A DNA stretch of 64,000 nt from an uncultured Succinivibrionaceae bacterium (GCA_900539665.1 UQCV01000004.1:1818-65817); one strand, 5' to 3'; shown: positions 1,534 through 62,547, counted from the first letter of the stretch. Notes: a model not told the origin generated them from the sequence alone. Program-made: numbers and translations.

Positions 1534-4500
1534 ATGAAAACTTCGAAAATAATTAAACTGTGTACTATTACAATCCTTGAAATAGCACTATTTCAACCAG
1601 CAGTAGCAAATTCTCCCATTCCAAATTATGCCGACGATAACGAAGACTGCATTAGAGCTCTGTACCAAATTACCACACAAGCGGAAAAAAGCTGTGGCGA
1701 CATCAGTGATAACGATATCAAAGTTTTACGATATGCTTGCTTTTGCGCCCCAATTCAAGGGAACGCACCTAGCGGACAATGCACTAATAGTGAGAATGAT
1801 GCTGAGCTAAATATTAACACCCAAGGCCATAAAGGTTTTTTTGAACTCAGTGCAAATGGGTGTTTTTCTGATCGATATATAGACAATGCTCCCCATTTCA
1901 ATATCACTCCTAATTTCTGTACTAACAAAATACACAATAATGATATTACCAAGCCTCTTGAAAATATAACGAATAATGCTTGGTTACATAAATCATCGTT
2001 TAAAGTTGTAGGTAGCGACAGAAAAACAGAAACTATCACCATGGATAGCTTGCGTGAACGCCTAATTAACATTATTAAAACAGACACTTCATGCAACAGA
2101 ATTATTGCTATAGACGACCAAACGTCTCTTAACGATCCTTCCCCATACAAGCTTTACGTTGCATTGAATGATGATTTAATTTTAAGTAAGGAAATTAAAC
2201 TAAGTAACTCTAATGAACCAGCAATTATTTTTGGAAAAAATATAACAATAAAGGGCAATGAAAGCCAAAAAAAATTAGCCCACATTCTCGCTTATGGCAC
2301 ACTTAATATTAATAATGGGGTGGAATTTTTCGGTGGGCTAAATGCCAATAAATTAAACTACACATTCACTAGCAATGACACAAGGCAAATAATTTTCACA
2401 TCTAAAGACCTGACTGGAGGGGAATGCCTTCACTGTTCAATGATTCAAAAGGCAGAAGCTAACGCTTTTCGCCTATCTCAAATAAGCAGACAAAACTCTT
2501 GTGAACAAATAATTCTGCAACTTGAAAAATGTACCTCTGGAAATTCTGAATGCACGCCTTACAAAGAAAATGGAGCCGTTGTAACCATAACCAAAAAAGA
2601 TGGAACAAGCACTACTAAAACCACTGATGAAAACGGGCGCATTAACTTAAGTAATAGCACTTTTTCCGCAAGTCTTGGAATAAATAACCAAGCTACCAAA
2701 GTATACTGTGACGCTACTACTAATACTTTAAGTGATAGCTGTACTTTTTCTGGAAATATTTGTACGGCCTCAATCAACGACGTTGGTGGGTATGTCGGTG
2801 AAACTTTACCTGTAGAAATTAAAATTCCAGGCGATGTTAAAGATTCATTCAAGGCTTCTAACGACAATACTGCAGATAGTACCGATACTGTTATAAAGGT
2901 TTACGCTAATGTAGCCACCACCCAAAATGTTTCTATAACTAATATTGATGGCACCAAGGTTTCAATCAACCTCCCTCCTAATGCGGGGACTACTACACCT
3001 ATAAACGGTGACATTGTTTTACCAAATGCAACTATCTCCTATAACGAACACTCAAAACAAACTATCATTAAGAGTACCTTAGTAGTAAATACTCTAGCGT
3101 TAGACCGCGAACCAAAAACCACTTATTTTAACTTCATCAAGCTTGAAGTCCAAAACAAAAATCCAGTCACCGGCGAAACGCCAGAAGAATTTATCTTCGA
3201 TTTTAGGCAAGAAACAACCAAACCTAAAATTAGAACTGCCCCCGTAGCCGTTTGTTTAAATGTCGACAACAAGACCCCTAGTAACTTATATCTTCTTGAA
3301 AGCGACCGCGCCTATGATTGGACTCAAAAAGCAGTTGGCTGCACCAATGAATTGTGTAAAGCTAACACTACCCCGGTTGACCAAAACATAATTGCAGATC
3401 AAAAGACCCTTAGTAAGTTTTGTGATGCGACCACAGATTTATTACCTCATGACGTTTACGACGACTGGCAACGTGAAGGCGCTTTGACCCCGTTATACAA
3501 AACTACCTTTGATGCGTGGTATCAAACTCCATCTGATGCCAATGTAATAACTCCTAGCAACCTAGCAACAGAAGATTCAACTCTTAAAAGCTCCTATGAA
3601 GCACTCAATATGTATATTGGCGACACAACCGAACGCTTAAAACTTGGTTTTACTGGCATCCACGGCTCTAGCGCCACCACCCCTAAAATAAGATTTACTA
3701 ACAATGGTTGGATTAGCGCTAGTACTTATAACCCCATTAACACCATTCCGGAACGAAAAACGTATTTTTATAGCCCAGTCTACACAGTGGTTCCGGTTTA
3801 TTTAACCCCAGGAAATGCTGACATCTTTAGTTATTACTCTTTAACGACAAGTGAAGATCTAACTAAGGTACCTGATGATTTGACCACCGTTGAAAACATA
3901 AATAAAAACAACTGCCCGCAGTACTATAATGAAAAACTTCTCTTACGCTTGAAGTTAAATGGCCGCAGTGCAACAGATAAAATCCTCACCAACATCCGAG
4001 GCTCTCTCGTTGACAACACCAAAAATGAAGTAGATTTTGTGGGCTTTAGTGTTCTACTTAAAGACGAACCAACCACCCCTACTTCAAGCTCCATTTCAAT
4101 GGCTCAAGAAAATGAGGCCAACTTTAGTAAGTTAAAGTCCCTAAAAAATTGGGACACCACAAAGGACGCTGATGGTTTTGTTTCTACCGCTTTTATGACT
4201 GCAGACAATAAATTCTCCTTATTAGGCACGCAAGAAGCAGATCCTAAGACCGTCTTTCTCGGGGTTTTAGGGCGCACCAAGATGTGTCTGGCGCCACAAG
4301 AAAAAGATGGTGCTTTCACCTGTAATTACGATGTATTTACCCGTAATGAAGTCGCAATCCCTGAAGAAGATACATTACAAAAAGGGTTCCTCGCCTCTGC
4401 GGTAAAAAACTACTATGGTTTGAGCGTAGTCCCTACAATTAGCAAGCTTGGAGACACGATAAACGGTCTTTCGACCCCGTGGAAAAACTACCACGTAACA

Positions 4501-5064
4501 TTTTTGCCTGTTAGCAAAGGCTCTGGCCCACTCCTTAAAAGTGTCGCCTTTGGGCGTTTAGTTTCTCTACCTGTAACAGGTAAGCAAGACACCTTATACC
4601 TACCGTTCACCATTCAATACTTGGACCAAAATGGTAATTGGAAGGTCCGTAAAGACCAGTGCACAACTTTAAATCTAGTCGATTACACTACACCAAATTT
4701 ACCACCAAACATGTTTTTCAAGACGGCAAAGAAAGATGGCGTACAAACTGATAAAAACGGGGTTATTAACCTAAAAGACGGAGAAGAGGTGCAATTAGGC
4801 TTTTGTACTAGCCATGACAAGAACTCTTGTAACGCAACTGCATTAGATGGGAACTTTGGGGCAGGTATACTTTGGCTTAAGGCCGAACACCAAAAAGGCA
4901 CCATTGATAAAGACTCCTACGGCCTTTTAGATCTCAAGTTTAATCCAGGAAGCAATGATAATAAGAACATTGATCATTTATTGGATAAAACAACCTCTCA
5001 AGGTGGGTTCTTGTTTAAGCAAGTTAAAAACAATCTTCGCATCATCAACGAAACAAGAGAGTAA
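1534..5064 (+). CDS. Large secreted protein of unknown function (1176 aa), N/T/S-rich, possibly a beta-helix or adhesin-like exoprotein
   Basis: ORF with a GGGGA RBS 8 nt upstream of ATG 1534 (the track start at 1528 is a TTG). It has an N-terminal signal peptide (…FQPAVA/NS) and a Cys-rich N-terminal segment. No recognisable catalytic motifs were seen. Confidence 0.6.
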   Translation: MKTSKIIKLCTITILEIALFQPAVANSPIPNYADDNEDCIRALYQITTQAEKSCGDISDNDIKVLRYACFCAPIQGNAPSGQCTNSENDAELNINTQGHKGFFELSANGCFSDRYIDNAPHFNITPNFCTNKIHNNDITKPLENITNNAWLHKSSFKVVGSDRKTETITMDSLRERLINIIKTDTSCNRIIAIDDQTSLNDPSPYKLYVALNDDLILSKEIKLSNSNEPAIIFGKNITIKGNESQKKLAHILAYGTLNINNGVEFFGGLNANKLNYTFTSNDTRQIIFTSKDLTGGECLHCSMIQKAEANAFRLSQISRQNSCEQIILQLEKCTSGNSECTPYKENGAVVTITKKDGTSTTKTTDENGRINLSNSTFSASLGINNQATKVYCDATTNTLSDSCTFSGNICTASINDVGGYVGETLPVEIKIPGDVKDSFKASNDNTADSTDTVIKVYANVATTQNVSITNIDGTKVSINLPPNAGTTTPINGDIVLPNATISYNEHSKQTIIKSTLVVNTLALDREPKTTYFNFIKLEVQNKNPVTGETPEEFIFDFRQETTKPKIRTAPVAVCLNVDNKTPSNLYLLESDRAYDWTQKAVGCTNELCKANTTPVDQNIIADQKTLSKFCDATTDLLPHDVYDDWQREGALTPLYKTTFDAWYQTPSDANVITPSNLATEDSTLKSSYEALNMYIGDTTERLKLGFTGIHGSSATTPKIRFTNNGWISASTYNPINTIPERKTYFYSPVYTVVPVYLTPGNADIFSYYSLTTSEDLTKVPDDLTTVENINKNNCPQYYNEKLLLRLKLNGRSATDKILTNIRGSLVDNTKNEVDFVGFSVLLKDEPTTPTSSSISMAQENEANFSKLKSLKNWDTTKDADGFVSTAFMTADNKFSLLGTQEADPKTVFLGVLGRTKMCLAPQEKDGAFTCNYDVFTRNEVAIPEEDTLQKGFLASAVKNYYGLSVVPTISKLGDTINGLSTPWKNYHVTFLPVSKGSGPLLKSVAFGRLVSLPVTGKQDTLYLPFTIQYLDQNGNWKVRKDQCTTLNLVDYTTPNLPPNMFFKTAKKDGVQTDKNGVINLKDGEEVQLGFCTSHDKNSCNATALDGNFGAGILWLKAEHQKGTIDKDSYGLLDLKFNPGSNDNKNIDHLLDKTTSQGGFLFKQVKNNLRIINETRE

Positions 5065-5147: not shown

Positions 5148-5773
5148 CCTCACTCGCCATCCCGTTACCCAAATATAAATCATCATATAAACCATCAAAT
5201 TAATTTTGGTCCTCAAGTAGGCAAATTAAAAAATTGAGACAAAGTTAAGTTTATTTCTGGATATTTACGAGGGATAAGCTAGCCTAACTTAATGCGTAGC
5301 TCTTATAGATTCCGCCTCCAAATTAATACCCCTTCTACTCTTACTAGAAATTTTAATTGCGAATTAAAGCGTCTAGAGATAAGCGCCAAACGAACCCGCC
5401 CTTATTAAGAACATAAAGCATCCCTTAGTGCAGAGTGTAAAAGTCAACTTCATAATGTAGATTTTCGCCAATCTCAAAATGCTGTTTAACTTTAAAGAAG
5501 ATAACTTTCACCATCGATTACTAGCTTTAAATACTAGTAGCAATGTAGAGCCTTTATAAGTAAATCAGGAAGCAAGGACGGGAATAAACCCCAAAAGAAA
5601 AGGGTACGTACCTACGTATGTATCGATGAATGAAAATTAAAGAGCAAAAAAGGACCGCCAAATTACAAGAACATGGTTTTAGGCATTTAATTAGTAATAC
5701 TTAAGCTGAGCTTGAAAAAAGCCACGAAAGAAGAAAGTGCTCCCCCGCCTCCACGTCAAACAATTCATACACG

Positions 5774-5851: not shown

Positions 5852-8389
5852 TTACTTAACGTCGCAAGCGTCGAGGTACCAAACGTCCTTCACGTAATCC
5901 ATGATTGAGCGGTCAGAGTTGAACTTGCCCATAGTGCATGAATTGATGATAACAGCCTTAGCCCACTGCTTCTTGTTCTTGTACATAGCGTCGATCTTAG
6001 CCTGAGCATCAGAGTAAGAAGCGAAGTCAGCAAGAGCGAGGTAAGTGTCACCACCATCGAGGAGCGCGCGCTTAATGCCAGCGAGTTCACCAGGACGGCC
6101 TGGAGTAAAGTAGTCGCTATCGAGCCAATCAAGGGCACCCTTGATTTCTTCGTTGCTGTTGTAGTAATCCCATGGGTTGTAACCCTGAGCCTTAATAGCC
6201 TTAACTTCGTCAACGTTGAGACCGAAGATAGCGTTGTTTTCTTTACCAGCTTCTTCAACGATTTCGATGTTAGCACCATCCATAGTACCAAGGGTAACAG
6301 CACCGTTCATGGCGAGCTTCATGTTACCAGTACCAGAAGCTTCGTAACCTGCAGTAGAAATCTGCTGAGATACGTCTGCAGCTGGGATGAGCTTTTCAGC
6401 AAGGCTTACACGGTAGTTAGGCATGAATACAACCTTGATCTTGCCACCAATGCGTGGATCGTTGTTGATGCGTTCGCCAACCTTATTGATAGCGTAGATG
6501 ATATCCTTTGCCATCTTATAGCCAGGAGCAGCCTTAGAACCGAAGATGAATACGTGCTTGCAAATGTCAAGATTTGGATTTGCAAGGAGACGACGGTAAA
6601 GAGCAAGGATGAACAAAAGGTTCAACTGCTGACGCTTGTATTCGTGGAGACGCTTGATCTGGATGTCGAAAATTGCATCTGCATCAACGTCAATACCAGT
6701 TTCCTGCTTAATTACCTTAACGAGCTTGAGCTTGTTAGCGTGCTTGATATCCATGAAACGCTTCTGGAATTTTGCATCATCAGCAAGTTTCTTTGCATCT
6801 CTGAGGTCATCAAGGTGGGTAGGCCATTCTGCGCCAACAACTTCAGTGTAGAGGTCAGCAAGAGCAGGGTTACAAGCAAGGAGCCAACGACGTGGAGTTA
6901 CACCGTTAGTTACGTTGCAGAACTTAGAAGGCCAAATCTTAGCGAATTCTGGGAAGAGGTCTTCACGAACGAGGTCAGAGTGAATCTTAGCTACGCCGTT
7001 AACCTTATGAGAACCAATTACACAGAGGTTGCCCATACGAACCTTGCGGCAATCGCCTTCTTCGATAAGAGAGAGCTTAGCCTTAATAAAATCGTTACCA
7101 GGGAAGGTCTGTTCGCATTCGCCTTCGAGGAATCTACGGTTGATTTCATAGATGATTTCGAGGTGACGTGGAAGAACCTTTTCAAAGAGGTATACAGGCC
7201 ACTTTTCAAGAGCTTCTGGAAGAAGAGTGTGGTTAGTGTATGAGAATACCTTGTAGCAGATACCCCATGCCTTTTCCCAATCCATGCCTTCTTCGTCAAC
7301 GAAGATACGCATAAGTTCAGGAATAGCGATAGTTGGGTGAGTATCGTTAAGCTGAATTGCAATCTTACTAGCAAATTCTGAGTAATCTACAACACCATTC
7401 TTGGTGTGAGCACGCTTGTAACGACGGAGGATATCCTTAAGTGAGCAAGCGCAGAAGAAGTACTGCTGAACGAGACGGAGGATCTTACCAGCTTCGGTAG
7501 AATCGTTAGGGTAAAGAACCTTAGAAATAGTTTCCGCCTGAGCCTTTTCGTTCTGAGCGTCAACGTAACCGCCAGCGTTAAATACGTCCCAATCAAAAGA
7601 TTCGGTAGCGCGTGATTCCCAAAGTCTGAGGATGTTTACAGTAGTGCCCTTGTAGCCAACTACTGGGATATCCCAAGGCACACCTTTGATAACCTGAGCT
7701 GGGTGCCATACTTTCTTAAGAGAACCATCTTCAGCGAAAGTGGTTTCTACGTAACCTGCAAGAGGAACTTCCTGGATTGATTCTGGACGGCAGATTTCCC
7801 ATGGGTTGCCGTATTCACGCCATGAATCAGGACGTTCGATCTGACGGCCATCACGGATTTCCTGACGGAAAAGACCGTTTTCGTAGTGGATACCGTAACC
7901 GATAGCAGGCATGTTAAGGGTTGCAAGAGAATCGATGAAGCAAGCAGCAAGACGACCAAGACCGCCGTTACCGAGAGCCATATCTGGTTCTTCTTCGCAA
8001 AGATCGGTAAGATCAAGATCCTTACCAAGTTCAGCACCAAGATCCTTTAACGCAGCGTCACAAACCTTGAAGAGGTTAAGGTTGTGAAGGTTGTTAGAGG
8101 TAAGACGACCCATAAGGAATTCTGCAGAGAGGTAATGCACTGCGCGAGTATCTTTCTTAGCGTGAGTCTGCTGAGTCTGAGTAAGACGTTCGTAAACGAG
8201 TTCATTTACTGCAGCACAGGTAGCCTTCCACCAAGCTTCCTTGCTAGCCTTGTTTTCGCTAGTGCCGAGAGTTGAGTGGAGGTGGTGAATGATCTTCTGC
8301 TTGAAAGTATTCTTGTCAATAGAAGCGAACTTAGCTGCTTCTTCAACAACAGGAGCTGAATTAGCTTCAACCTTTCTCTTAATTGCCAT
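5852..8389 (-). CDS. glgP: Alpha-glucan (glycogen/maltodextrin) phosphorylase
   Basis: 845 aa with the conserved phosphorylase N-terminus (…HYLSAEFLMGR…) and the PLP-site region. Codon usage is very strongly biased (cgt/ggt/ctt/aac), indicating high expression. It could be a malP-type enzyme. Confidence 0.85.
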   Translation of the reverse strand: MAIKRKVEANSAPVVEEAAKFASIDKNTFKQKIIHHLHSTLGTSENKASKEAWWKATCAAVNELVYERLTQTQQTHAKKDTRAVHYLSAEFLMGRLTSNNLHNLNLFKVCDAALKDLGAELGKDLDLTDLCEEEPDMALGNGGLGRLAACFIDSLATLNMPAIGYGIHYENGLFRQEIRDGRQIERPDSWREYGNPWEICRPESIQEVPLAGYVETTFAEDGSLKKVWHPAQVIKGVPWDIPVVGYKGTTVNILRLWESRATESFDWDVFNAGGYVDAQNEKAQAETISKVLYPNDSTEAGKILRLVQQYFFCACSLKDILRRYKRAHTKNGVVDYSEFASKIAIQLNDTHPTIAIPELMRIFVDEEGMDWEKAWGICYKVFSYTNHTLLPEALEKWPVYLFEKVLPRHLEIIYEINRRFLEGECEQTFPGNDFIKAKLSLIEEGDCRKVRMGNLCVIGSHKVNGVAKIHSDLVREDLFPEFAKIWPSKFCNVTNGVTPRRWLLACNPALADLYTEVVGAEWPTHLDDLRDAKKLADDAKFQKRFMDIKHANKLKLVKVIKQETGIDVDADAIFDIQIKRLHEYKRQQLNLLFILALYRRLLANPNLDICKHVFIFGSKAAPGYKMAKDIIYAINKVGERINNDPRIGGKIKVVFMPNYRVSLAEKLIPAADVSQQISTAGYEASGTGNMKLAMNGAVTLGTMDGANIEIVEEAGKENNAIFGLNVDEVKAIKAQGYNPWDYYNSNEEIKGALDWLDSDYFTPGRPGELAGIKRALLDGGDTYLALADFASYSDAQAKIDAMYKNKKQWAKAVIINSCTMGKFNSDRSIMDYVKDVWYLDACDVK

Positions 8390-10922: not shown

Positions 10923-11492
10923 ACTAGATCCTTTTCCTGTAATATTAGTACATGTTCTCTTTATACCAATAATTTCATTACGAAAGTGCATTAGACCAAA
11001 TTACGTCTTGCTCACAATCTCAATAAAACATTGACCTGTATGAAAGGAACAAAAGAAGAAAGTTATATTTTGATATCAAAGATAAATTGGGTTTTACTAA
11101 GCCCATCTAAATTCATACAGCATCTACCTAAGCCTATTCTCATAGGAACAAGTAGAAGTCTTATTGGGTATTTAATTACTGTTTCTAATTTAACACCCAA
11201 GCTATAAAAGCTCTAAATGTACTTAAACTTTAATTCTCTTCAACAAAATAGACCATGGTCACATTTTCATCGAATACCGCTAAAAATAGCACATAATCAT
11301 AACCGTCGCAAGAAGCGCAAGTGAGTTTTTTGTGAACTTAATCGCCCTATACTAGATTTAAAAAGCCACAAAAATAAGCCACTTGTTTTGGCCTTTAGAG
11401 AAATTCACGCTGTAAAATCCAAGTTGAACCGAACAAACATCAAGCAAAACTTATGCCAACCAAAAGCTCCTAACTAAAAGATAACATAAAAC

Positions 11493-12173
11493 CTAACGGC
11501 GGGCTGAAAGGCGTGCTTGTTTTTCCCACAAAGCCTCTTCTTCTTCGTGGACTTTCTTACGCTTTTCAGAAAGTTCAACTAATCGCCCTTCATCATCATC
11601 TTCTTCTAACACAAATTCCCCACCTTGAGCTTTAGGATAAAGAGCCGCAGCGCATTCTTCGAATGCGTAGCACACGCCAATCGCAACATGTTCATAGATC
11701 AACATGAAATCACGTTCTGAATTTTCCCCTTCCGGAATGTCTTCATCAATGCCTGCGATATCCATAATATCTCGTAGCATTTCTTGCAAATCGTTACTTA
11801 ATTTTGAATGCACCTTTTGTTTGCAAGAAAAACCAGTCACAAAAGAATGAGCAAATTCAGCTAAAGCATGGGCTCTATCTCTTATCGGGGTATCATCATC
11901 GGGAATTAAAATATCAGCCTTATCATTTTCCACAATATCAGTTACAACATCAGTTGCGATTTGCTTAATCCAAGCCACTGCGCTTCCTGGCAATGGTTCA
12001 CCATCATTCATAAGCTGTACTGCATACTCTAAAAAAGCCGGATCTTCCGCTTTTATCCCAGAGGCAATCATACCAACAACAAGACCATAGACATCAGATA
12101 CAGATGCATAAAGACCTGCTTCTTTTAAAATAGACTCGCCTTCAAGGTATTTGTTTTCGTTACTAACTGCCAT
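11493..12173 (-). CDS. ygfB: UPF0149 (YgfB/YecA-like) family protein with an acidic C-terminal tail
   Basis: Motifs hGLvvGMiasG and rAHALAeFAHSFvtGF parallel E. coli YgfB. There is no SEC-C motif. Confidence 0.5.
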   Translation of the reverse strand: MAVSNENKYLEGESILKEAGLYASVSDVYGLVVGMIASGIKAEDPAFLEYAVQLMNDGEPLPGSAVAWIKQIATDVVTDIVENDKADILIPDDDTPIRDRAHALAEFAHSFVTGFSCKQKVHSKLSNDLQEMLRDIMDIAGIDEDIPEGENSERDFMLIYEHVAIGVCYAFEECAAALYPKAQGGEFVLEEDDDEGRLVELSEKRKKVHEEEEALWEKQARLSARR

Positions 12174-12536
12174 AACGTATTCCTTAAATGATTAAACTCT
12201 AATAGACAATAAAAACAAAGTGAACTAGATCTTATGCATCTCGACAATTCCAACCTAAATTAGGAGGAAGGCTCTCACCTAATCAAACCTAAAATCAGTC
12301 CCTTCAATTTTAAGCAGGATTTAAAAAAAATTTCAAACAAAAAATACTTGCTTGTTGATAAATTTATCAAGATATAGCCTACCAATTTTCTTTAATAACC
12401 AAAACTCTATTAAATAGATTTAAACTCAAAACACCTTGCCTTAGCTTTAAAAATAACTGCTTAAATTTTACTCATCTTTACTTTGTAAAACTCGTGATCC
12501 ATATCATGTAGGATTCAATGCGTATTGCATGTTTGT

Positions 12537-12549
12537 TTGCATTTTGCAA
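12537..12549. promoter_or_regulatory. TTGCA-ttt-TGCAA palindrome (LuxO/NtrC-class enhancer-like site)
   Basis: Exact match to the TTGCA-N3-TGCAA pattern. Adjacent TTGCA repeats are at 12525 and 12563-12570 (TTTGCAAA). The site is about 250 bp upstream of the sigma54 promoter at 12794. Confidence 0.35.
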
Positions 12550-12793
12550 ATATTATTCTTAATTTGCAAATTAAACAAACTTTCCGAAATTAGTTTTCCC
12601 TTTAAAATTTTTAACACTTTTTATTTTATTTAAAAAACTCACTCCCCAAAACTCAATCAAAACCAAACTTTTTAGATTATCATCTTGTTTAATACCGTTT
12701 TTGCAGTATTTAATTCTTTGTTTTGCACGTTTTGGATTATTTATCCCGTTTTAACTTTTAGGTAAATAATTTTTAATAAAAATAATTCAAAAT

Positions 12794-12808
12794 TGGCACG
12801 GCTTTTGC
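12794..12808 (+). promoter_or_regulatory. Sigma54 (-24/-12) promoter TGGCACggcttTTGCT
   Basis: GG and GC are separated by exactly 10 nt and flanked by the consensus TGGCAC and TTGC. The predicted TSS is near 12820. Confidence 0.6.
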
Positions 12809-12819
12809 TACCATAATTG

Positions 12820-12900
12820 CGTAATCAGTTTATCCCGTGCTCTTTCATAGTAATATGAAAGATTTTGGACTTCAAAGTTTCTTTGAAGTCCTTCTTTTTT
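12820..12900 (+). ncRNA. Candidate sigma54-dependent small RNA (~80 nt, two hairpins)
   Basis: The sigma54 promoter is followed by the hairpin CTTTCATA-GTAA-TATGAAAG and then an intrinsic terminator. No protein-coding gene lies downstream on this strand before the suhB promoter. Confidence 0.4.
12868..12900 (+). terminator. Rho-independent terminator in the intergenic region
   Basis: GGACTTCAAAG-TTT-CTTTGAAGTCC (11-bp stem) followed by TTCTTTTTT. Confidence 0.75.
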
Positions 12901-13029
12901 CTGAATCTCATTTTTAATCCTTTTTATTTTTCCCTTTCTTTACTATTACTTCCTACCGTTATTCGTAAAGCTTAACCAAAAGTTTTGCGCATAAATTACA
13001 AAAATTTGAAGCTGCGCAAATTTTTGTTG

Positions 13030-13038
13030 TGATATAAT
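13030..13038 (+). promoter_or_regulatory. suhB promoter (extended -10, TGaTATAAT)
   Basis: Perfect TGnTATAAT about 140 nt upstream of the suhB ATG. Confidence 0.5.
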
Positions 13039-13136
13039 TGCGCCATATTCTGCTACGTTAGCAGAGTGGTGCCTTATCCTATAGCTCTCAACTTTACGTT
13101 GAAGTACGGATTTTTGTGTACACCAAGGCACCTGAA

Positions 13137-13149
13137 TGTTCTTTAACCC
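13137..13149 (+). promoter_or_regulatory. boxA-like element TGTTCTTTAACCC in the suhB 5' UTR
   Basis: Close to the boxA consensus TGCTCTTTAACA. The E. coli suhB leader is known to carry a boxA used for Nus-factor-dependent autoregulation. Confidence 0.4.
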
Positions 13150-13170
13150 AAACAGAAAATCAGGATTACT

Positions 13171-13995
13171 ATGCATCCAATGCTCACTATTGCAGTTCGT
13201 GCTGCCCGCGTTGCCGGAAATGTTATTTCATTAAATTTTGACGATTCAACCAACGTTTCAGTTCAGGAAAAGTCTAAGAACGATTTGGTTACCAACGTTG
13301 ATCGCGAATGTGAAAAACTCATCTGCGAAACCATCCTTAAGTCTTATCCTGATCACTGTGTTCGCGGTGAAGAATTTGGTATTGTTGGCAATACCGATTC
13401 TGATTTCGAATGGATCATCGACCCGCTCGATGGTACCACCAACTTCTTCAAAGGTATTCCACACGTTGCTGTTTCTATCGGTTTACGCATCAAAGGCGTA
13501 ACTACCGTAGGTGTTGTATTTGACCCAATTAGAAACGAACTCTTTACTGCTGCTCGCGGTGAAGGTGCTCAGCTTAACGGCAGACGTATCCGTGTTGGTG
13601 AAGCTCATAGCCTTGATGGCGCAATCATTGCTACCTCTTTCCCTCATAGAAAGAGAGGCTTCATGGAAGACTACAAAAAGATTTTATTCCGCATTTTCAA
13701 CAAGTGTGCAGACATCCGTCGCGCAGGCACCGCAAGCCTTGACCTCGCTTATGTAGCAGCTGGCCGTCTTGAAGGTTACTTTGAACTTTGCCTCTACCCA
13801 TGGGATTTTTGCGCTGGTGAACTTTTAGTTCGTGAAGCTGGCGGGATTGTAACCGACTTTGCTGGTGGCACTGACTACTACCAAAGTGGCAACATCGTGT
13901 GCGGCAACCCAGCTGTTCTTAAGTCATTGATTCGTGAAATCAACGCTGAACCACTTTCACAAGCCATCATCAGCCACAAGTGCCTCACCAAGTAA
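13171..13995 (+). CDS. suhB: Inositol monophosphatase / Nus-complex factor SuhB
   Basis: MHPMLTIAVRAARVAGN… with the DPLDGT and WDFAAGELLVREAGG motifs. It is nearly collinear with E. coli SuhB. Confidence 0.9.
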   Translation: MHPMLTIAVRAARVAGNVISLNFDDSTNVSVQEKSKNDLVTNVDRECEKLICETILKSYPDHCVRGEEFGIVGNTDSDFEWIIDPLDGTTNFFKGIPHVAVSIGLRIKGVTTVGVVFDPIRNELFTAARGEGAQLNGRRIRVGEAHSLDGAIIATSFPHRKRGFMEDYKKILFRIFNKCADIRRAGTASLDLAYVAAGRLEGYFELCLYPWDFCAGELLVREAGGIVTDFAGGTDYYQSGNIVCGNPAVLKSLIREINAEPLSQAIISHKCLTK

Positions 13996-14173: not shown

Positions 14174-15952
14174 CTACCAGTTATAACTTGAACTAGCCTC
14201 TTCTACTATACCCTTTAAAACATCGGCAATCACTTTTGGAATAATCTTAGGACCTCTGTGACTTGCATAATCAGCCACCGCAACCGCCATCCCAGGCTTA
14301 GTCCTTCTCTTTAAAGCGCGTTCAATGATTTTAGAGGGACCAATCCCTTCGGCATTACCATACCCAGATTCTGCCCGATAAACATTTTCAAAACCATTTT
14401 CGTAAAGATAATGCTCAATATCGACCGCCGGAAGCATGGTAACCTTATCAGGATTATCGCCAGCAGGTCCTGAAGTAGTGTATTTTTGCCCAGCCAAGTC
14501 ACCGTCTGCAAGTAAACGCCAACAAAGTCCTAGCTGCTGTGCTAACTTAATCAATGCCCCAGAACCACATTGAGCATATTCAACTAAACGGATCCCTGTG
14601 GCTAATAAATTAAGCCCCATAATATTAGCGAATTCATTTAACAGCCAAATTTCTGTTTCCCCTTCCACAAAAATCCAGCCCCTTGCATAAAGTGACATCG
14701 GGCGATTTATCCGAATATGAAAGGCAATCTTACGTAATTCATCACTAGAAAACTTCTTTTCATCAATGCAGTAACAACGAGTTTCAAACGGCATGGAATA
14801 CATGCGTCTGATATCACTTAAATTTACGGTCGAAAGAATATCACCTGAGTTTGTGGTGATAATTTGCTGCATTGGCAACATCGACACGACATTCCAAAAC
14901 CCAAACAATTCCACTGGATGTAGACGGCTATCGATATCTTCAAAAATTACAATCGGATGAGCGTGAATCTGTAAGCGTCGCCCTTGGCTTGCACTTAAAA
15001 GTGCTCCGGCAATCAACGCTAAAATAAAACCAGCTTTTTTCTTATCTGCTAGGCTCACTAAGTTTTGTAACGAAGCTAATGAACCATTAGGAATAGGACG
15101 AGACACTATGTCATGGAGCGATCTATTTTGCGGTTTTAGATATTTTACCTGTCCCCCTGAGGTAACTTGGAAGTAATGTTCTACTAATTGACGCATCGAA
15201 TCGATGGCACGGTCTATAAATTCCGGCGCTAAGTCCGCCCCTTCGCCTTTCATGACATTACGAAATAATCTTTTTAAAACGCCAGCCAACTTTTCAAAAT
15301 TATTGCGCCCATTTTTGCCCCCAAAACGACGCTTATCTTCTTCTAAGTCTAGACCAAGAGGAGGATTCATACGTTTTTCAGTTCGTACAATATCAGGTTC
15401 TGTAAAACCAGAGGTACGGCTATCACGCAACCTAAAAAGCGGGTTTAAAAGTAGCAGCATGCGCACCTGTAAGCTAGCATCCCCATCCATTAGACTTCCG
15501 GTTCTACTTCTAAACCCATGTATCGTTTGCACGGTACCGTCTTCTAAAAGATACCCTCGCACACAGTAAAAAATGCGGGTATACATATCTGAACATTGTT
15601 GCCAATATGGCTGTAGACGCCTGGAGTTTGAATTACTTAAAGCCGAACCAAAGGTTCTTTCCCTAAAGGTAAAAACCATAACTATGCTTTTCACCACATG
15701 GTCAGGATCCCCTTCTTGGTATCTATAAACCGGACCTTCACGATCTTCAAGACTACCAGGAATTACGGTACGAAAATCTGCCGTTTTAAACTGGTACGGA
15801 TGATCTCCACCCCCAAAAACGCTTAACAATGCTCGTAGGAGAGAACTTTTACCCCATGCATTTTCCCCGATAAGAACCGTACGATCCGTAAAATTAACGG
15901 CAAGTTTGGCTAGACCTCTGAATCCTGAAATCTCAGCTCTTTCTAAGATCAT
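14174..15952 (-). CDS. OLD-family ATP-dependent endonuclease (class 1, YbjD-like; ABC ATPase plus TOPRIM)
   Basis: Walker A GENAWGKSSLL, Walker B-like IVIFEDIDSRLHP, and C-terminal TOPRIM residues (FVEGETE, LADGDLAG). The start is ATG 15952 with a GGAGG RBS; the track start at 15979 is a TTG. Confidence 0.75.
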   Translation of the reverse strand: MILERAEISGFRGLAKLAVNFTDRTVLIGENAWGKSSLLRALLSVFGGGDHPYQFKTADFRTVIPGSLEDREGPVYRYQEGDPDHVVKSIVMVFTFRERTFGSALSNSNSRRLQPYWQQCSDMYTRIFYCVRGYLLEDGTVQTIHGFRSRTGSLMDGDASLQVRMLLLLNPLFRLRDSRTSGFTEPDIVRTEKRMNPPLGLDLEEDKRRFGGKNGRNNFEKLAGVLKRLFRNVMKGEGADLAPEFIDRAIDSMRQLVEHYFQVTSGGQVKYLKPQNRSLHDIVSRPIPNGSLASLQNLVSLADKKKAGFILALIAGALLSASQGRRLQIHAHPIVIFEDIDSRLHPVELFGFWNVVSMLPMQQIITTNSGDILSTVNLSDIRRMYSMPFETRCYCIDEKKFSSDELRKIAFHIRINRPMSLYARGWIFVEGETEIWLLNEFANIMGLNLLATGIRLVEYAQCGSGALIKLAQQLGLCWRLLADGDLAGQKYTTSGPAGDNPDKVTMLPAVDIEHYLYENGFENVYRAESGYGNAEGIGPSKIIERALKRRTKPGMAVAVADYASHRGPKIIPKVIADVLKGIVEEASSSYNW

Positions 15953-16340
15953 ACGCGCCTCCGTTGACAAAAGGGTCAATGAATCGTTCCTAAAGAAAAT
16001 CGTAGACCAATTTATGTTTTACATACTTAGCTAAAGTTCTAACCACTAAGGTCACTAGAACCACTAAACAACGAAAAGCACGAAGCCTAGTACTAGTAAT
16101 ATATACCTTAAATTGAGGCCTTAAATTAAGCTTATGTTTTGGTCGAGCCGTAAGCCCTTGTGGTCACCGTTTGCTAAACGTCTTAACGTCTTCTCCCAAA
16201 ACTCCAAAGGCTTTATATCAAAGCCTCTAAGTGTTTTAACTAGGAACCTAGTTAAAATATTATATCGGGGCCTTATGGTGAAAACAGTTAAGTTGAGGCA
16301 AAATTTTGTGACATTCCTTGATTAAAAAGTGACCTATCAC

Positions 16341-22561: not shown

Positions 22562-22609
22562 GAATAGTATCATGACTTCATTAACTCTTACTGCAAAGCG
22601 TTGGTGGCG
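22562..22609 (+). CDS. trpL: trp leader peptide MTSLTLTAKRWWRTR with tandem Trp codons
   Basis: AGGA RBS. The WWRT core is shared with E. coli TrpL (…KGWWRTS). Confidence 0.8.
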
Positions 22610-22666
22610 CACTCGATAATACGCGGGTGGGCTAAGTCATGTTTTAAAATTAGCTATTCAAAGAAA

Positions 22667-22693
22667 AGCCCGCACCTGCGGGCTTTTTTTTTA
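22667..22693 (+). terminator. trp attenuator terminator (3:4 hairpin)
   Basis: AGCCCGC-ACCT-GCGGGCT followed by T9. An upstream CGCGGGTGGGC can form the alternative antiterminator pairing. Confidence 0.8.
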
Positions 22694-40250: not shown

Positions 40251-40539
40251 TAAATTACTTCCTAAGTTTCTTCTATTTTTCCTTCTTCCTTATAAATAGT
40301 CTTTTATTACTTAGAATGCAGATTTGAAAGCAGTTTTTAAGACAAACATGGAAAAATGAAACCGACCTGGGATATGTTTTTTAGAGATATTAGTTTGGGT
40401 GGCATATAGCTTGCACTATTACTTAACAATTACATAAGTAGCGGACTTAAGCTTAGATAAAACTCGTTTAATAAAACTCATTTGATTAAAATTCGTTTAA
40501 ATATTTATGCTACCTTTCGCAGCATCAAAGGAGAACAAT

Positions 40540-40935: not shown

Positions 40936-41553
40936 TACTAAAAAGGCTTAAACCACCAACAATTTCACTTTTAGAATTTAACAATTGTACGTATTCCTTT
41001 TCCTCTAACAAAAACTTATAAAACAAGGATATAAGCATCATAATTTCACAAAAAAACATAGATCACATTTTATTAATAGATTTTTACATGTTTGTGAATA
41101 CCATAAAATAAAACTACCTTATTCTATAGTAGAATCAATGGAGTGTTGAGAATAAATTATGTTACACAAATGTGTGCATTAAACATTTAATTGAATATAG
41201 GGCTTAGTTTTTTTAATAATCACTTAGCCTTTAAGCTAGGCAAGGTTTTTCATCCTATGGCTTAAAACTATTTTCAAAGTCAGCACTAAACTAAAACACA
41301 TTAGACGTAAGAAAAAAACAGTAGTCCAGACAAGTTTTCATTTATTCATGACCGGAATCCTCGAAAACATTATTTGGAAAATTCTAAAAGAATTTAGGTA
41401 GGTAATAGCTAAAGCACCTACTTCTCTACCACTACTACAAATTAACTTCTATCGTGTATAGTGCTTGAGCGTCGACATCAATGCTTATTAACATACAATT
41501 AGAACAAGCCTTGACCTAAAGTAAAGGCCAACACAAGAATAAGAAGGATGCAC

Positions 41554-43167
41554 ATGAAAAGCATCGAACCCAAAACATCTCGTACCTCTTCAACCGATTC
41601 ATCAGAAAAATCCACTCAGGTAGATATTAAGCAAAAACTTTTAGAAAAAGATTTAGAAATTGAACGTTTGCAAAAACTACTCAGGAAAACTGAACAAGAA
41701 CGTACTCGCGAACGCAAATACTCTATCGGTTTCATCAGTCAAATGTTTAGAAACTATTGGGGGTATGATGACGACTTTAACTCTCAAATGAGTTCTGTCT
41801 TTGATAAAATTAATACTGAAACCCCTATAAATGAACAGATGGATACCGTGTTTGAACTCCAAAGTACTTTGCAAGTTCAAGCCAAAAAGATGAAGTTGTT
41901 TCATGGTAGCATCACTTCAGAACTCGGACGTTTAAAAGAAGCTATTGAACGTTTTCCAGTGCTTGTAGATAAATTGTCTCGCATGGGCATGTCTCTCGAG
42001 AATGCACAAAACGGAGCTAATATTGATCGCATCAGGAATAGCCTCAATATTGCCACCGAAGCCATTACTTATTTAGAAGAAAGTACTTTTACCACCGGCA
42101 AAACCCAAATTCCGGCCAAATATAAAAATGAGCTAGCCGGGATTATTTCCTCATTAAATTTACCATCACAAGAAAGCAAAAAAGACATTCAAAAGTGTTT
42201 TGAATTAATTAAGGATGGCGACGCTTATACCGATTTAGCAATTATTGTGATAAATCTTTTACGCACCATTACCAGAGCCTTTAACATTGAACGTGAAAGT
42301 TTCCTGGGCTTTTTAGAAGAGTTCTACGAAAACATTAACGTTATTCAAAACTCTATTTCAGATAACATCACGTTAGAACATAAAATCAATAAAAACACTA
42401 AAGATAGCAATAAACAAATTGATAGCACCATTAGCGCTATCAATACTTCACTTGATTTAGGTGACACTGATTTTAAAGAAATATCGTGCATGATTAAAGA
42501 ACGTTTACAGCATCTTGCGGAAATCGTTCGTGAACACAATAAGTACCTTAACATGCAGGATAAACTTCTTTTAGATCTAACTGAAATTGAAGCTCGCGTC
42601 AATAGCATCAGAAACAACGCGTCTAGCTTTAAAGAAGAACTGCAAGATATTTCTCGTAAGAGCAAGACCGACCCGCTTACCGGTTTATATAACCGTTTAA
42701 GTTTTGATAGCATTGTGGAAAAAGAATTATTGTCTTTTCACAGAGACGCTCAGCTTCAATGTGCGGTGCCATTTTACATTCTTCTAATTGATATCAATAA
42801 CTTTGGCGATACTAACCGTAAATACGGCGCCAACGTTGGGGATAAGATTCTACGTGTCGTCGCCCTAACTTTAAAACAAAATTTAAGAAGCGGCGATTTC
42901 TTAGCGCATCTTGAAGCCGACAAATATGCACTTATGATTCACGAAGCCCTCCCGGAAAATATTCACCGAGTCGCTTCAAAACTAATCAGTGCAATTAAAG
43001 GAATTCCGTTCCATTACAACACTGAAAAAGTTAATGTTTCCATCTCAATTTCCGCCCGTAAAATCACGGAAGAAACATCAGAAGTACAAACTTTACTTGA
43101 ACAACTTACTAACGACATGAAAACCCTAAGACGTAACCCTGATAATGCCCACTTCTCAATTGTGTAA
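41554..43167 (+). CDS. Coiled-coil protein with a C-terminal degenerate GGDEF domain (GGDEF replaced by EADKY, I-site RxxD retained)
   Basis: DINNFGDTNRKYGANVGDKIL…RSGDFLAHLEADKYALMI aligns with the GGDEF A-site and I-site. The N-terminal ~380 aa are predicted coiled-coil. Confidence 0.65.
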   Translation: MKSIEPKTSRTSSTDSSEKSTQVDIKQKLLEKDLEIERLQKLLRKTEQERTRERKYSIGFISQMFRNYWGYDDDFNSQMSSVFDKINTETPINEQMDTVFELQSTLQVQAKKMKLFHGSITSELGRLKEAIERFPVLVDKLSRMGMSLENAQNGANIDRIRNSLNIATEAITYLEESTFTTGKTQIPAKYKNELAGIISSLNLPSQESKKDIQKCFELIKDGDAYTDLAIIVINLLRTITRAFNIERESFLGFLEEFYENINVIQNSISDNITLEHKINKNTKDSNKQIDSTISAINTSLDLGDTDFKEISCMIKERLQHLAEIVREHNKYLNMQDKLLLDLTEIEARVNSIRNNASSFKEELQDISRKSKTDPLTGLYNRLSFDSIVEKELLSFHRDAQLQCAVPFYILLIDINNFGDTNRKYGANVGDKILRVVALTLKQNLRSGDFLAHLEADKYALMIHEALPENIHRVASKLISAIKGIPFHYNTEKVNVSISISARKITEETSEVQTLLEQLTNDMKTLRRNPDNAHFSIV

Positions 43168-62153: not shown

Positions 62154-62169
62154 TGCAAAATGAATGCCA
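62154..62169 (-). promoter_or_regulatory. Sigma54 promoter (minus-strand TGGCAttcattTTGCA) for fliEFGHIJ
   Basis: Perfect GG-N10-GC spacing with TGGCA and TTGCA. It sits about 50 nt upstream of the fliE ATG. Confidence 0.7.
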
Positions 62170-62547
62170 ACTCGTACTTCGTTTAGGTTACGACTTTTTT
62201 CAAAACCAGAACATTAAAAGCTTAACGCTCAAACTTAAACTGCTTATTTAGGGTCAGGGAATTCTTTCAATTTTGTTTGAAAAAGTAAACTTGTACTAGC
62301 TTTAATAAACCTGTACTAGCTTTAAGTAGTTTTAAAGCCAAACCTTCTACGAAGTTAAGCTTTAAAAGTCCATACCACTTCTTCTGATAAGACTATTTAG
62401 TCAAGTAACTATAACACGAGAAACCGCTCGGACCACGCCCCCACTTACAAAAACGTTAAGTTGTACGAAATACAACGTTTTTCGAGGCGTAAATAATCGA
62501 GTAGGGATTTTACCACTCTAAAAAATGCCCATGCTAGGCACACAACA

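Follow-up and report, generated by a model that had tools for sequence, protein, structure and literature searches.

A conserved candidate small RNA gene with a Qrr-like, sigma-54-type control region in Succinivibrionaceae

A 64,000-nucleotide stretch of DNA from an uncultured Succinivibrionaceae bacterium (GCA_900539665.1, UQCV01000004.1:1818-65817; analysed whole and hereafter called the window) carries, in a gene-free spacer ahead of suhB, what is by prediction from sequence a previously undescribed, conserved small RNA (sRNA) gene whose control region resembles that of the Qrr genes. We propose, with a probability of roughly 0.65, that the spacer holds an independent gene for a trans-acting regulatory RNA of ~80 nt in Succinivibrionaceae, which would be under LuxO-like sigma-54 control and would act by base-pairing. 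The predicted RNA is a new sRNA family that has Qrr-like input logic and is not a Qrr homologue. A preliminary description of this DNA had put forward a candidate sigma-54-dependent sRNA with LuxO-type sites, unrelated to Qrr, and the comparative evidence gathered here supports that candidate.

Qrr-type control, which combines a LuxO phosphorelay with sigma-54-dependent sRNAs, is regarded as a speciality of the Vibrionaceae. Here, the full Qrr-type cis-regulatory signature stands ahead of a different RNA, in a strictly anaerobic family that is met very frequently in metagenomes of the rumen and the human gut. Its members abound in the rumen and in non-industrialised human guts, are difficult to grow in culture and have been linked to low-methane fermentation. 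If the proposal holds, it would offer a first handle on post-transcriptional, possibly cell-density-dependent, regulation in this family, an enhancer and promoter module would have been retained while the RNA that it drives was exchanged, and RNA databases, which have no model for this RNA now, would gain a new family.

The decisive support for the predicted sRNA unit comes from its recurrence across lineages, rather than from statistics within the window. We compared the window species, Succinivibrionaceae bacterium WG-1 (L001), the Logan contig L081, the L090/L093 pair and L096, which together provide seven sequence variants. The conservation of the promoter-hairpin-terminator unit in relatives, named in the preliminary description as a check, was borne out: promoter, RNA and terminator recur as a set across five to six lineages of Succinivibrionaceae, placed in no fewer than three genomic contexts. 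A metagenome scan with a 19-nt RNA core returned 12 contigs, ten of them with the full unit; the remaining two, from which the promoter is missing, were discarded as chance matches. Further contigs of two species were obtained through protein look-ups, and the RNA is invariant across more than 20 metagenome contigs from two species. The L090/L093 lineage was assigned to Succinivibrionaceae via a protein of a named metagenome-assembled genome (MAG), and L096 was placed via its IS21 transposase, which groups with a transposase of a Ruminobacter MAG. The orthologous spacers of WG-1 and L081 (the latter with a SuhB 86% identical to that of the window) are each ~1 kb long, and a three-way alignment with the window spacer matches at four islands only: an upstream palindrome (TTTGCATTTTGCAAATA), the promoter, the RNA and a boxA-like element, GTTCTTTAAC, just ahead of suhB. 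The DNA on either side of the unit cannot be aligned from one lineage to another, and the block of identity starts no more than one or two bases from the predicted transcription start (+1).

These comparisons bear on the simplest alternative, namely that the motifs co-occur by chance in an AT-rich spacer that is not transcribed. The 300 bp ahead of the promoter are indeed 76% A+T, and a single TTGCA-N3-TGCAA palindrome is statistically unremarkable, with three sites at up to one mismatch in the window against 4.2 expected. Chance would not, however, keep the unit in lineages that share no alignable flanking sequence, nor would it account for compensatory changes in the terminator or for an RNA that does not vary between metagenome contigs, and the comparative data have effectively refuted this reading already. 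Transcription and its dependence on sigma-54 are inferred, and a genuine sigma-54-driven sRNA gene appears highly probable.

The predicted promoter, TGGCACGGCTTTTGCT, lies at 12794-12809 on the plus strand and is a perfect match to TGGCAC-N5-TTGCW, with its GG at 12795-12796 and its GC at 12807-12808. A near-consensus site had been described at 12794-12808; the start of that interval was right, but its end should be 12809, and the consensus proved to be perfect. It is the only sigma-54 site without a mismatch in the 64-kb window, where nine sites with at most one mismatch were found against 2.4 expected from shuffles. TGGCACG-N4-TTGCW is intact in all lineages, the spacer letters varying, and no sigma-70-like promoter was found on the plus strand within 12100-13250. 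Promoter geometry puts the predicted +1 at about 12820-12821, so that transcription would start ~12 nt past the -24/-12 promoter. In every lineage the invariant block opens with G12821, one base beyond the predicted +1 and 11-12 nt past the TTGCW (-12) element.

The predicted sRNA spans 81 nt (12820-12900, plus strand), its start being placed to within ~2 nt and its 3' end falling within the U-tract. It folds with a minimum free energy of -24.2 kcal/mol (z = -6.05; RNAfold, 200 shuffles), in keeping with the two-hairpin transcript of about 80 nt that had been expected. The 26 nt from G12821 (12821-12846, GTAATCAGTTTATCCCGTGCTCTTTC) are 100% identical in 7/7 sequence variants, and the conserved RNA core reads GTAATCAGTTTATCCCGTGC. 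By prediction, the 5' end, (C)GUAAUCAGUUUAUCCCGUGC (12820-12840, plus strand, 21 nt), is single-stranded in most variants and forms a putative pairing seed. It is followed by stem-loop 1 at 12841-12862 (plus strand), the internal hairpin previously given as 8 bp: the hairpin is present, but RNAfold gives it 9 bp in the window species and 6-9 bp in other lineages, the basal six pairs UCUUUC/GAAAGA being kept in all. Stem-loop 1 is nearly unvarying, with one U-A to U-G change in L081, so covariation neither supports nor contradicts its structure.

The 3' end is a strong intrinsic terminator at 12867-12900 (plus strand), the only terminator-like site within 12100-13250. Its 11-bp stem (12867-12891) is preceded by the U-rich linker AUUUU and followed by the U-tract TTCTTTTTT (12892-12900). 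Stem length and U-run agree with the earlier account, which had set the first base of the stem at 12868 and was thus correct on the element and one position late on its start. The terminator sequence is wholly different between lineages while its pairing is kept: 8/8 basal pairs have changed on both sides across lineages, and the arms of each lineage's own terminator pair at 8/8 positions. Arms swapped between lineages with different terminator sequences form 2-6/8 pairs, and those swapped between close relatives still pair (window/L081, 7-8/8; L090/L093, 8/8). These counts were made on stems anchored at the base, because MAFFT and RNAalifold had misaligned the terminators. The transcript had been described as free of open reading frames (ORFs) with a ribosome-binding site, and we found no conserved ORF in it among the lineages compared; an ATG within the hairpin opens a 20-codon frame through the terminator, which is not kept in other lineages.

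The unit resides in three settings. In three species (window, L001 and L081) it occupies the spacer between a UPF0149-family gene and suhB; in L090, L091, L099 and L106-L115 the order is uvrB, a small radical-SAM gene, the sRNA and a sulfatase gene, with the sRNA co-directional with uvrB (in L091 at 7640-7742, minus strand), an L090-type order that was confirmed in ten further contigs; and in L096 it lies beside an IS21 element. On a further contig, L098, thrS and infC (1824-3977) lie downstream of the sRNA and are of Muribaculaceae type, the encoded IF-3 being an exact match to one of that family; this contig is probably a chimeric assembly, and its gene context was for that reason disregarded. 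The window holds no second copy of the sRNA in a core search allowing up to three mismatches, and an nhmmer profile run over all sequences compared detected no diverged copies. As in the stand-alone class of sRNAs served by sigma-54 and bacterial enhancer-binding proteins, the unit is self-contained, with three contexts, conservation confined to its own elements and a covarying terminator.

A co-directional gene lies downstream in every context, suhB starting ~270 nt past the terminator in the window and the sulfatase gene ~800 nt past it in L090-type loci. This arrangement is also what a cis-acting leader or attenuator would present, in which the sigma-54 promoter drives suhB or another downstream gene and the terminator is a point of regulated read-through. 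The downstream genes are nevertheless unrelated to one another (suhB, sulfatase, IS21 transposase), the terminator is strong and shows no evident conserved alternative pairing, and the interval from terminator to suhB is unconserved save for boxA. In addition, suhB orthologues of close relatives stand without the element, and the motif TGATATAAT at 13030-13038 could serve suhB. Because unrelated genes follow in at least three contexts and relatives' suhB genes lack the element, we conclude that the predicted sRNA is not a suhB leader, and a cis-acting leader or attenuator seems very improbable. The objection that the terminator might serve a read-through transcript from elsewhere does not hold either: the element is autonomous and therefore not the terminator of an upstream gene, and the nearest plus-strand gene upstream of the sRNA stops at 5064.

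Upstream of the promoter, a putative activating region (12525-12569, no strand assigned) contains a full palindrome with TTGCA/TGCAA half-sites at 12525-12529 and 12564-12569. The palindrome itself, TTGCATTTTGCAA, is a 13-bp TTGCA-W3-TGCAA at 12537-12549 (no strand assigned) and a candidate LuxO-type site; an exact TTGCA-N3-TGCAA with flanking TTGCA repeats had been reported at this position, and it is present as described, the window having no other exact match. Six TTGCA/TGCAA 5-mers fall within 60 bp around it, the densest cluster in the window against a background of 2.5 per kb. Every lineage has a TTGCA-W3-TGCAA site, exact or differing at one position, at 188-257 bp ahead of the promoter and accompanied by two to four flanking half-sites, and comparable TTGCA/TGCAA clusters lie 188-276 bp ahead of the promoter in all of them. 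The palindrome is exact in the window, L001 and L081, and exact in the opposite orientation (TTGCAAAATGCAA) in L093; L090 has one copy with one mismatch and L096 two copies with one mismatch each. Within the ~250 bp ahead of the promoter, the palindrome is the sole conserved island of the three-way alignment. None of the six lineages has a motif of the GlrR, CbrB or NtrC type in its 400 bp of upstream sequence.

The LuxO upstream activating sequence has been given the consensus TTGCAWWWTGCAA (PMC10162802), which is matched exactly at 12537-12549. Chromatin immunoprecipitation sequencing (ChIP-seq) of V. cholerae LuxO located its sites at qrr1 (ttgcaaaatgcaa) and at qrr3 (ttgcattttgcaa) (PMC10328515); TTGCATTTTGCAA is identical to the qrr3 site, and its reverse complement to the qrr1 site. 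The assignment of this palindrome to the LuxO-type class, made beforehand, is thus strengthened by letter-for-letter identity to mapped V. cholerae sites and by recurrence in all lineages.

The control region would work much as in the Vibrio Qrr sRNAs. Since the palindrome cluster is the only conserved upstream element, it is likely to be the binding site of the activator, and because the palindrome is a LuxO recognition sequence, that activator is most likely to be a LuxO-like response regulator controlled by phosphorylation. An enhancer-binding ATPase is required in any case: a sigma-54 promoter cannot open unaided and needs an ATP-dependent enhancer-binding protein. Such a protein would occupy TTGCA-W3-TGCAA and the flanking half-sites about 200-260 bp upstream, and would reach the promoter through looping of the intervening AT-rich DNA. 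On balance, the site sequence tips the case slightly towards an activator with LuxO-like DNA specificity.

The likeness to Qrr covers the arrangement of the gene. In both, a sigma-54 -24/-12 promoter stands directly ahead of the RNA, the upstream TTGCA-W3-TGCAA is the one seen at V. cholerae qrr1 and qrr3, the RNAs are short (about 80-100 nt) and end in an intrinsic terminator, and both contain a long, absolutely conserved stretch. In genomic position, the sRNA of one lineage, two genes away from uvrB, recalls Vibrio qrr1, whose neighbours are uvrB and luxO. In the V. fluvialis control locus (L124), the order is uvrB, qrr1 on the opposite strand, luxO and luxU, with TTGCATTTTGCAA 76 bp upstream of TGGCAC and an imperfect copy 105 bp upstream. 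The uvrB-linked sRNA differs in being co-directional with uvrB, and no luxO adjoins any copy of the sRNA. The upstream site, too, stands at 188-257 bp from the promoter, versus about 76-105 bp in qrr1, and the host family is strictly anaerobic, of gut and rumen, with no LuxO circuit described in the literature found; nor did we find literature on sRNAs in Succinivibrionaceae.

The RNA itself bears no resemblance to Qrr in sequence or structure by covariance model: it consists of an unpaired 5' end followed by two hairpins, whereas the Rfam Qrr model has three helices and begins with a 5'-terminal hairpin. At the gathering threshold, Rfam families gave no Qrr, GlmY/Z or CrcZ match in the window, and at E<=10 on 12100-13250 they again gave no Qrr, GlmY/GlmZ or CrcZ match and returned chance eukaryotic microRNA and small nucleolar RNA matches only. 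Membership of Qrr (RF00378), tested against the conserved core GGUCACCUAGCCAACUGACGUUGUUAGUGAA and its stem-loops, failed even at E<=10, whilst V. fluvialis qrr1 scored 86.9 bits with the same model (gathering score 50). As the model finds a real qrr1 but nothing here, the RNA is not a member of the Qrr family, in agreement with the earlier view that it does not resemble Vibrio Qrr; the Rfam searches for Qrr, GlmY/GlmZ and CrcZ suggested at that stage have likewise matched no family.

GlmY/GlmZ (Enterobacterales; GlrR/QseF and sigma-54) share enhancer-dependent sigma-54 promoters, stand-alone sRNA genes and an origin in Gammaproteobacteria with the present unit. Membership of this pair was rejected, with no Rfam match and no GlrR site (TGTC-N10-GACA) in the 400 bp upstream in six lineages; both RNAs measure about 150-200 nt and fold differently, and GlmY works by sequestering a protein. 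CrcZ/CrcY (Pseudomonas, CbrB) and NrsZ (NtrC) likewise exemplify a two-component response regulator that turns on an sRNA with sigma-54. CrcZ is a sponge of ~400 nt with repeated A-rich motifs, and membership of CrcZ/CrcY was rejected for want of an Rfam match and of the CbrB site (TGTTAC-N14-GTAACA) upstream; for NrsZ, too, there was no Rfam match, and NtrC motifs are absent upstream of the Succinivibrionaceae sRNA.

Several results weigh against our proposal. A tblastn search with LuxO found no gene for an enhancer-binding protein in the window or the Succinivibrionaceae loci compared, and none of the LuxO-like proteins traced could be assigned to Succinivibrionaceae. The palindrome lies farther from the promoter than the two copies of V. 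fluvialis qrr1, and no consensus site for integration host factor was found between palindrome and promoter. Relatives with SuhB 65-75% identical (L003, L083-L087) have a short UPF0149-suhB spacer without the element, and no covariation support was obtained for stem-loop 1, the sequence of which barely varies. Finally, RNAduplex predictions against 43 window gene starts and the neighbours of related loci, a sample of only a few percent of a genome, yielded no convincing mRNA target; the best score, -16.1 kcal/mol, falls in the tail of the background, and no prediction recurred between species.

To look for the activator, we used a V. cholerae LuxO sequence that matches a database entry at 99%, and searched protein collections clustered at 90% and 50% identity. 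LuxO-like proteins are widespread, with the LuxO model (NF041946) as their best NCBIfam hit, yet they score below its Vibrio-tuned cut-off. AT-rich LuxO-like representatives were traced to contigs of rare, marine or unassignable organisms, and no sigma-54 promoter or palindrome was found near those of the genes that were scanned for them. A neighbouring family provides an Aeromonas protein, reached through a search from representative P0245, that shares 57% identity with V. cholerae LuxO and gives LuxO as its best NCBIfam hit; its recognition helix SPSTIYRK is kept and its helix-turn-helix is nearly identical to that of V. cholerae LuxO. Neither a sigma-54 promoter nor a palindrome lies near the Aeromonas gene. 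On a marine metagenome contig (L104, 7542-9521), a LuxO-like regulator gene directly follows an Hpt (LuxU-like) gene, and this pair indicates that LuxU-LuxO-type pairs exist outside Vibrionaceae.

The same evidence bears on a second alternative, in which the sRNA is genuine and sigma-54-driven and its activator is another NtrC-family protein (FlrC/FleR-type, nitrogen-related or of another two-component system) that by chance recognises half-sites containing TGCA, the likeness of its control region to Qrr being coincidental. This would fit with the lack of a LuxO-like gene tied to Succinivibrionaceae, with a site-promoter distance that differs from Vibrio qrr genes, with an RNA sequence unrelated to Qrr, and with the clear use of sigma-54 for flagellar genes, as seen in a promoter-like site ahead of fliE. 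However, the 13-bp site fits the LuxO consensus exactly in several lineages and in both orientations, and the NtrC-, GlrR- and CbrB-type motifs are missing. Moreover, no TTGCA palindrome was found at the sigma-54-like promoter of fliE in the window, so that TTGCA-W3-TGCAA is no generic flagellar enhancer. We regard a non-LuxO activator as unlikely.

A more far-reaching version of the LuxO-like interpretation would have Succinivibrionaceae run a Vibrio-style phosphorelay of a LuxO-like protein, sigma-54 and an sRNA, in which the RNA was entirely replaced, or diverged past recognition from an ancestral uvrB-linked qrr, with the enhancer site and the promoter logic retained, and in which each genome might hold two paralogous copies, a suhB-linked and a uvrB-linked one. 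This is a tentative suggestion, and a doubtful one on the present data; if true, it would mean Qrr-type cell-density or signal integration outside Vibrionaceae in addition to a new sRNA family.

As to how the RNA would act, its layout, with an unpaired 5' end, a hairpin, a U-rich linker and a U-tailed terminator, is that of Hfq-type sRNAs, so that pairing of the 5' end with mRNAs, after termination at the strong intrinsic terminator, would be the most likely mode. We consider base-pairing fairly probable. The RNA might instead sequester a protein, as CrcZ does with Hfq/Crc and GlmY with RapZ: an identity of 26 nt exceeds what a 7-12-nt seed needs, the target scan came up empty, and other sigma-54-dependent sRNAs (CrcZ, GlmY) act as decoys. 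Against this, the RNA is short, has a single copy of any motif and lacks repeated A-rich or GGA motifs, its unpaired 5' end and U-tailed terminator are typical of pairing sRNAs, and Qrr sRNAs likewise contain a very long invariant stretch. Sequestration is in our judgement improbable, and base-pairing remains the preferred mode.

The two kinds of copy, uvrB-linked (L090-type) and suhB-linked, may represent paralogues within a single species. One MAG seems to carry near-identical markers of both loci, the GC content of the two is equal (0.39-0.40), and a window spacer (5436-5491) has a 56-nt segment in common with L099 (4134-4189, at the 5' end of a 410-aa ORF; 98% identity). The segment looks like a remnant of a gene or mobile element, and hints that the window and L099 come from closely related genomes. 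Against a single genome, the sample lists of suhB-linked and uvrB-linked copies do not overlap.

The spacer that holds the predicted sRNA is 997 bp long (12174-13170) and free of genes, with the UPF0149-family gene at 11493-12173 (minus strand) on its left and suhB at 13171-13995 (plus strand) on its right. The window SuhB is 80% identical to that of WG-1, and the window NusA shares 98% identity with a fragment belonging to a MAG that bears the name Succinivibrionaceae bacterium. The window organism is met very often in assemblies: its exact SuhB sequence is indexed in 929 assembly-collection blocks, many of them from human-gut studies.

Between the sRNA terminator and suhB, the sole conserved element is the boxA-like GTTCTTTAACCC at 13138-13149, 22-33 nt ahead of the suhB start codon, which is kept in L081, L001 and L002. 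In E. coli, suhB is autoregulated by SuhB and Nus factors via boxA, and the window boxA resembles that one. The extended -10-like motif TGATATAAT (13030-13038), ~130 nt ahead of suhB, was missed by the consensus scan; this 9-mer also occurs in L081 and is a plausible candidate for suhB's own promoter, which makes the earlier remark that suhB has one plausible as well. On its other side, suhB adjoins an OLD-family or PtuA-like ATPase gene (14174-15979, minus strand) in a position kept in L081 and L083; the L081 orthologue has DUF2813, AAA_15 and OLD-TOPRIM domains, and the gene looks like a defence-type one.

Other sigma-54-like sites in the window include TGGCATTCATTTTGCA at 62154-62169 (minus strand), directly ahead of fliE, which heads a flagellar cluster (fliE-F-G-H-I-J...fliP) spanning 48-62 kb. 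A direct repeat, ttaaagctagtaca(g/a)gttta, lies ~130 bp upstream of this site (about 62285-62335) and may be a flagellar enhancer site. TGGCATAAGTTTTGCT at 11443-11458 (minus strand), ~450 nt ahead of pgm, occurs in the window species (also L094) only; it was looked for in L001 and L081, is missing from both and was dropped as a part of the system, and it is probably non-functional or species-specific. A further such site, TGGCATATAGCTTGCA at 40400-40415 (plus strand), precedes by ~1.1 kb a gene for a GGDEF diguanylate cyclase (41548-43167). Elsewhere in the window, Rfam matched a Trp_leader at 22596-22691 (plus strand, 47.7 bits) ahead of a trpE-G/D-C/F-B-A operon.

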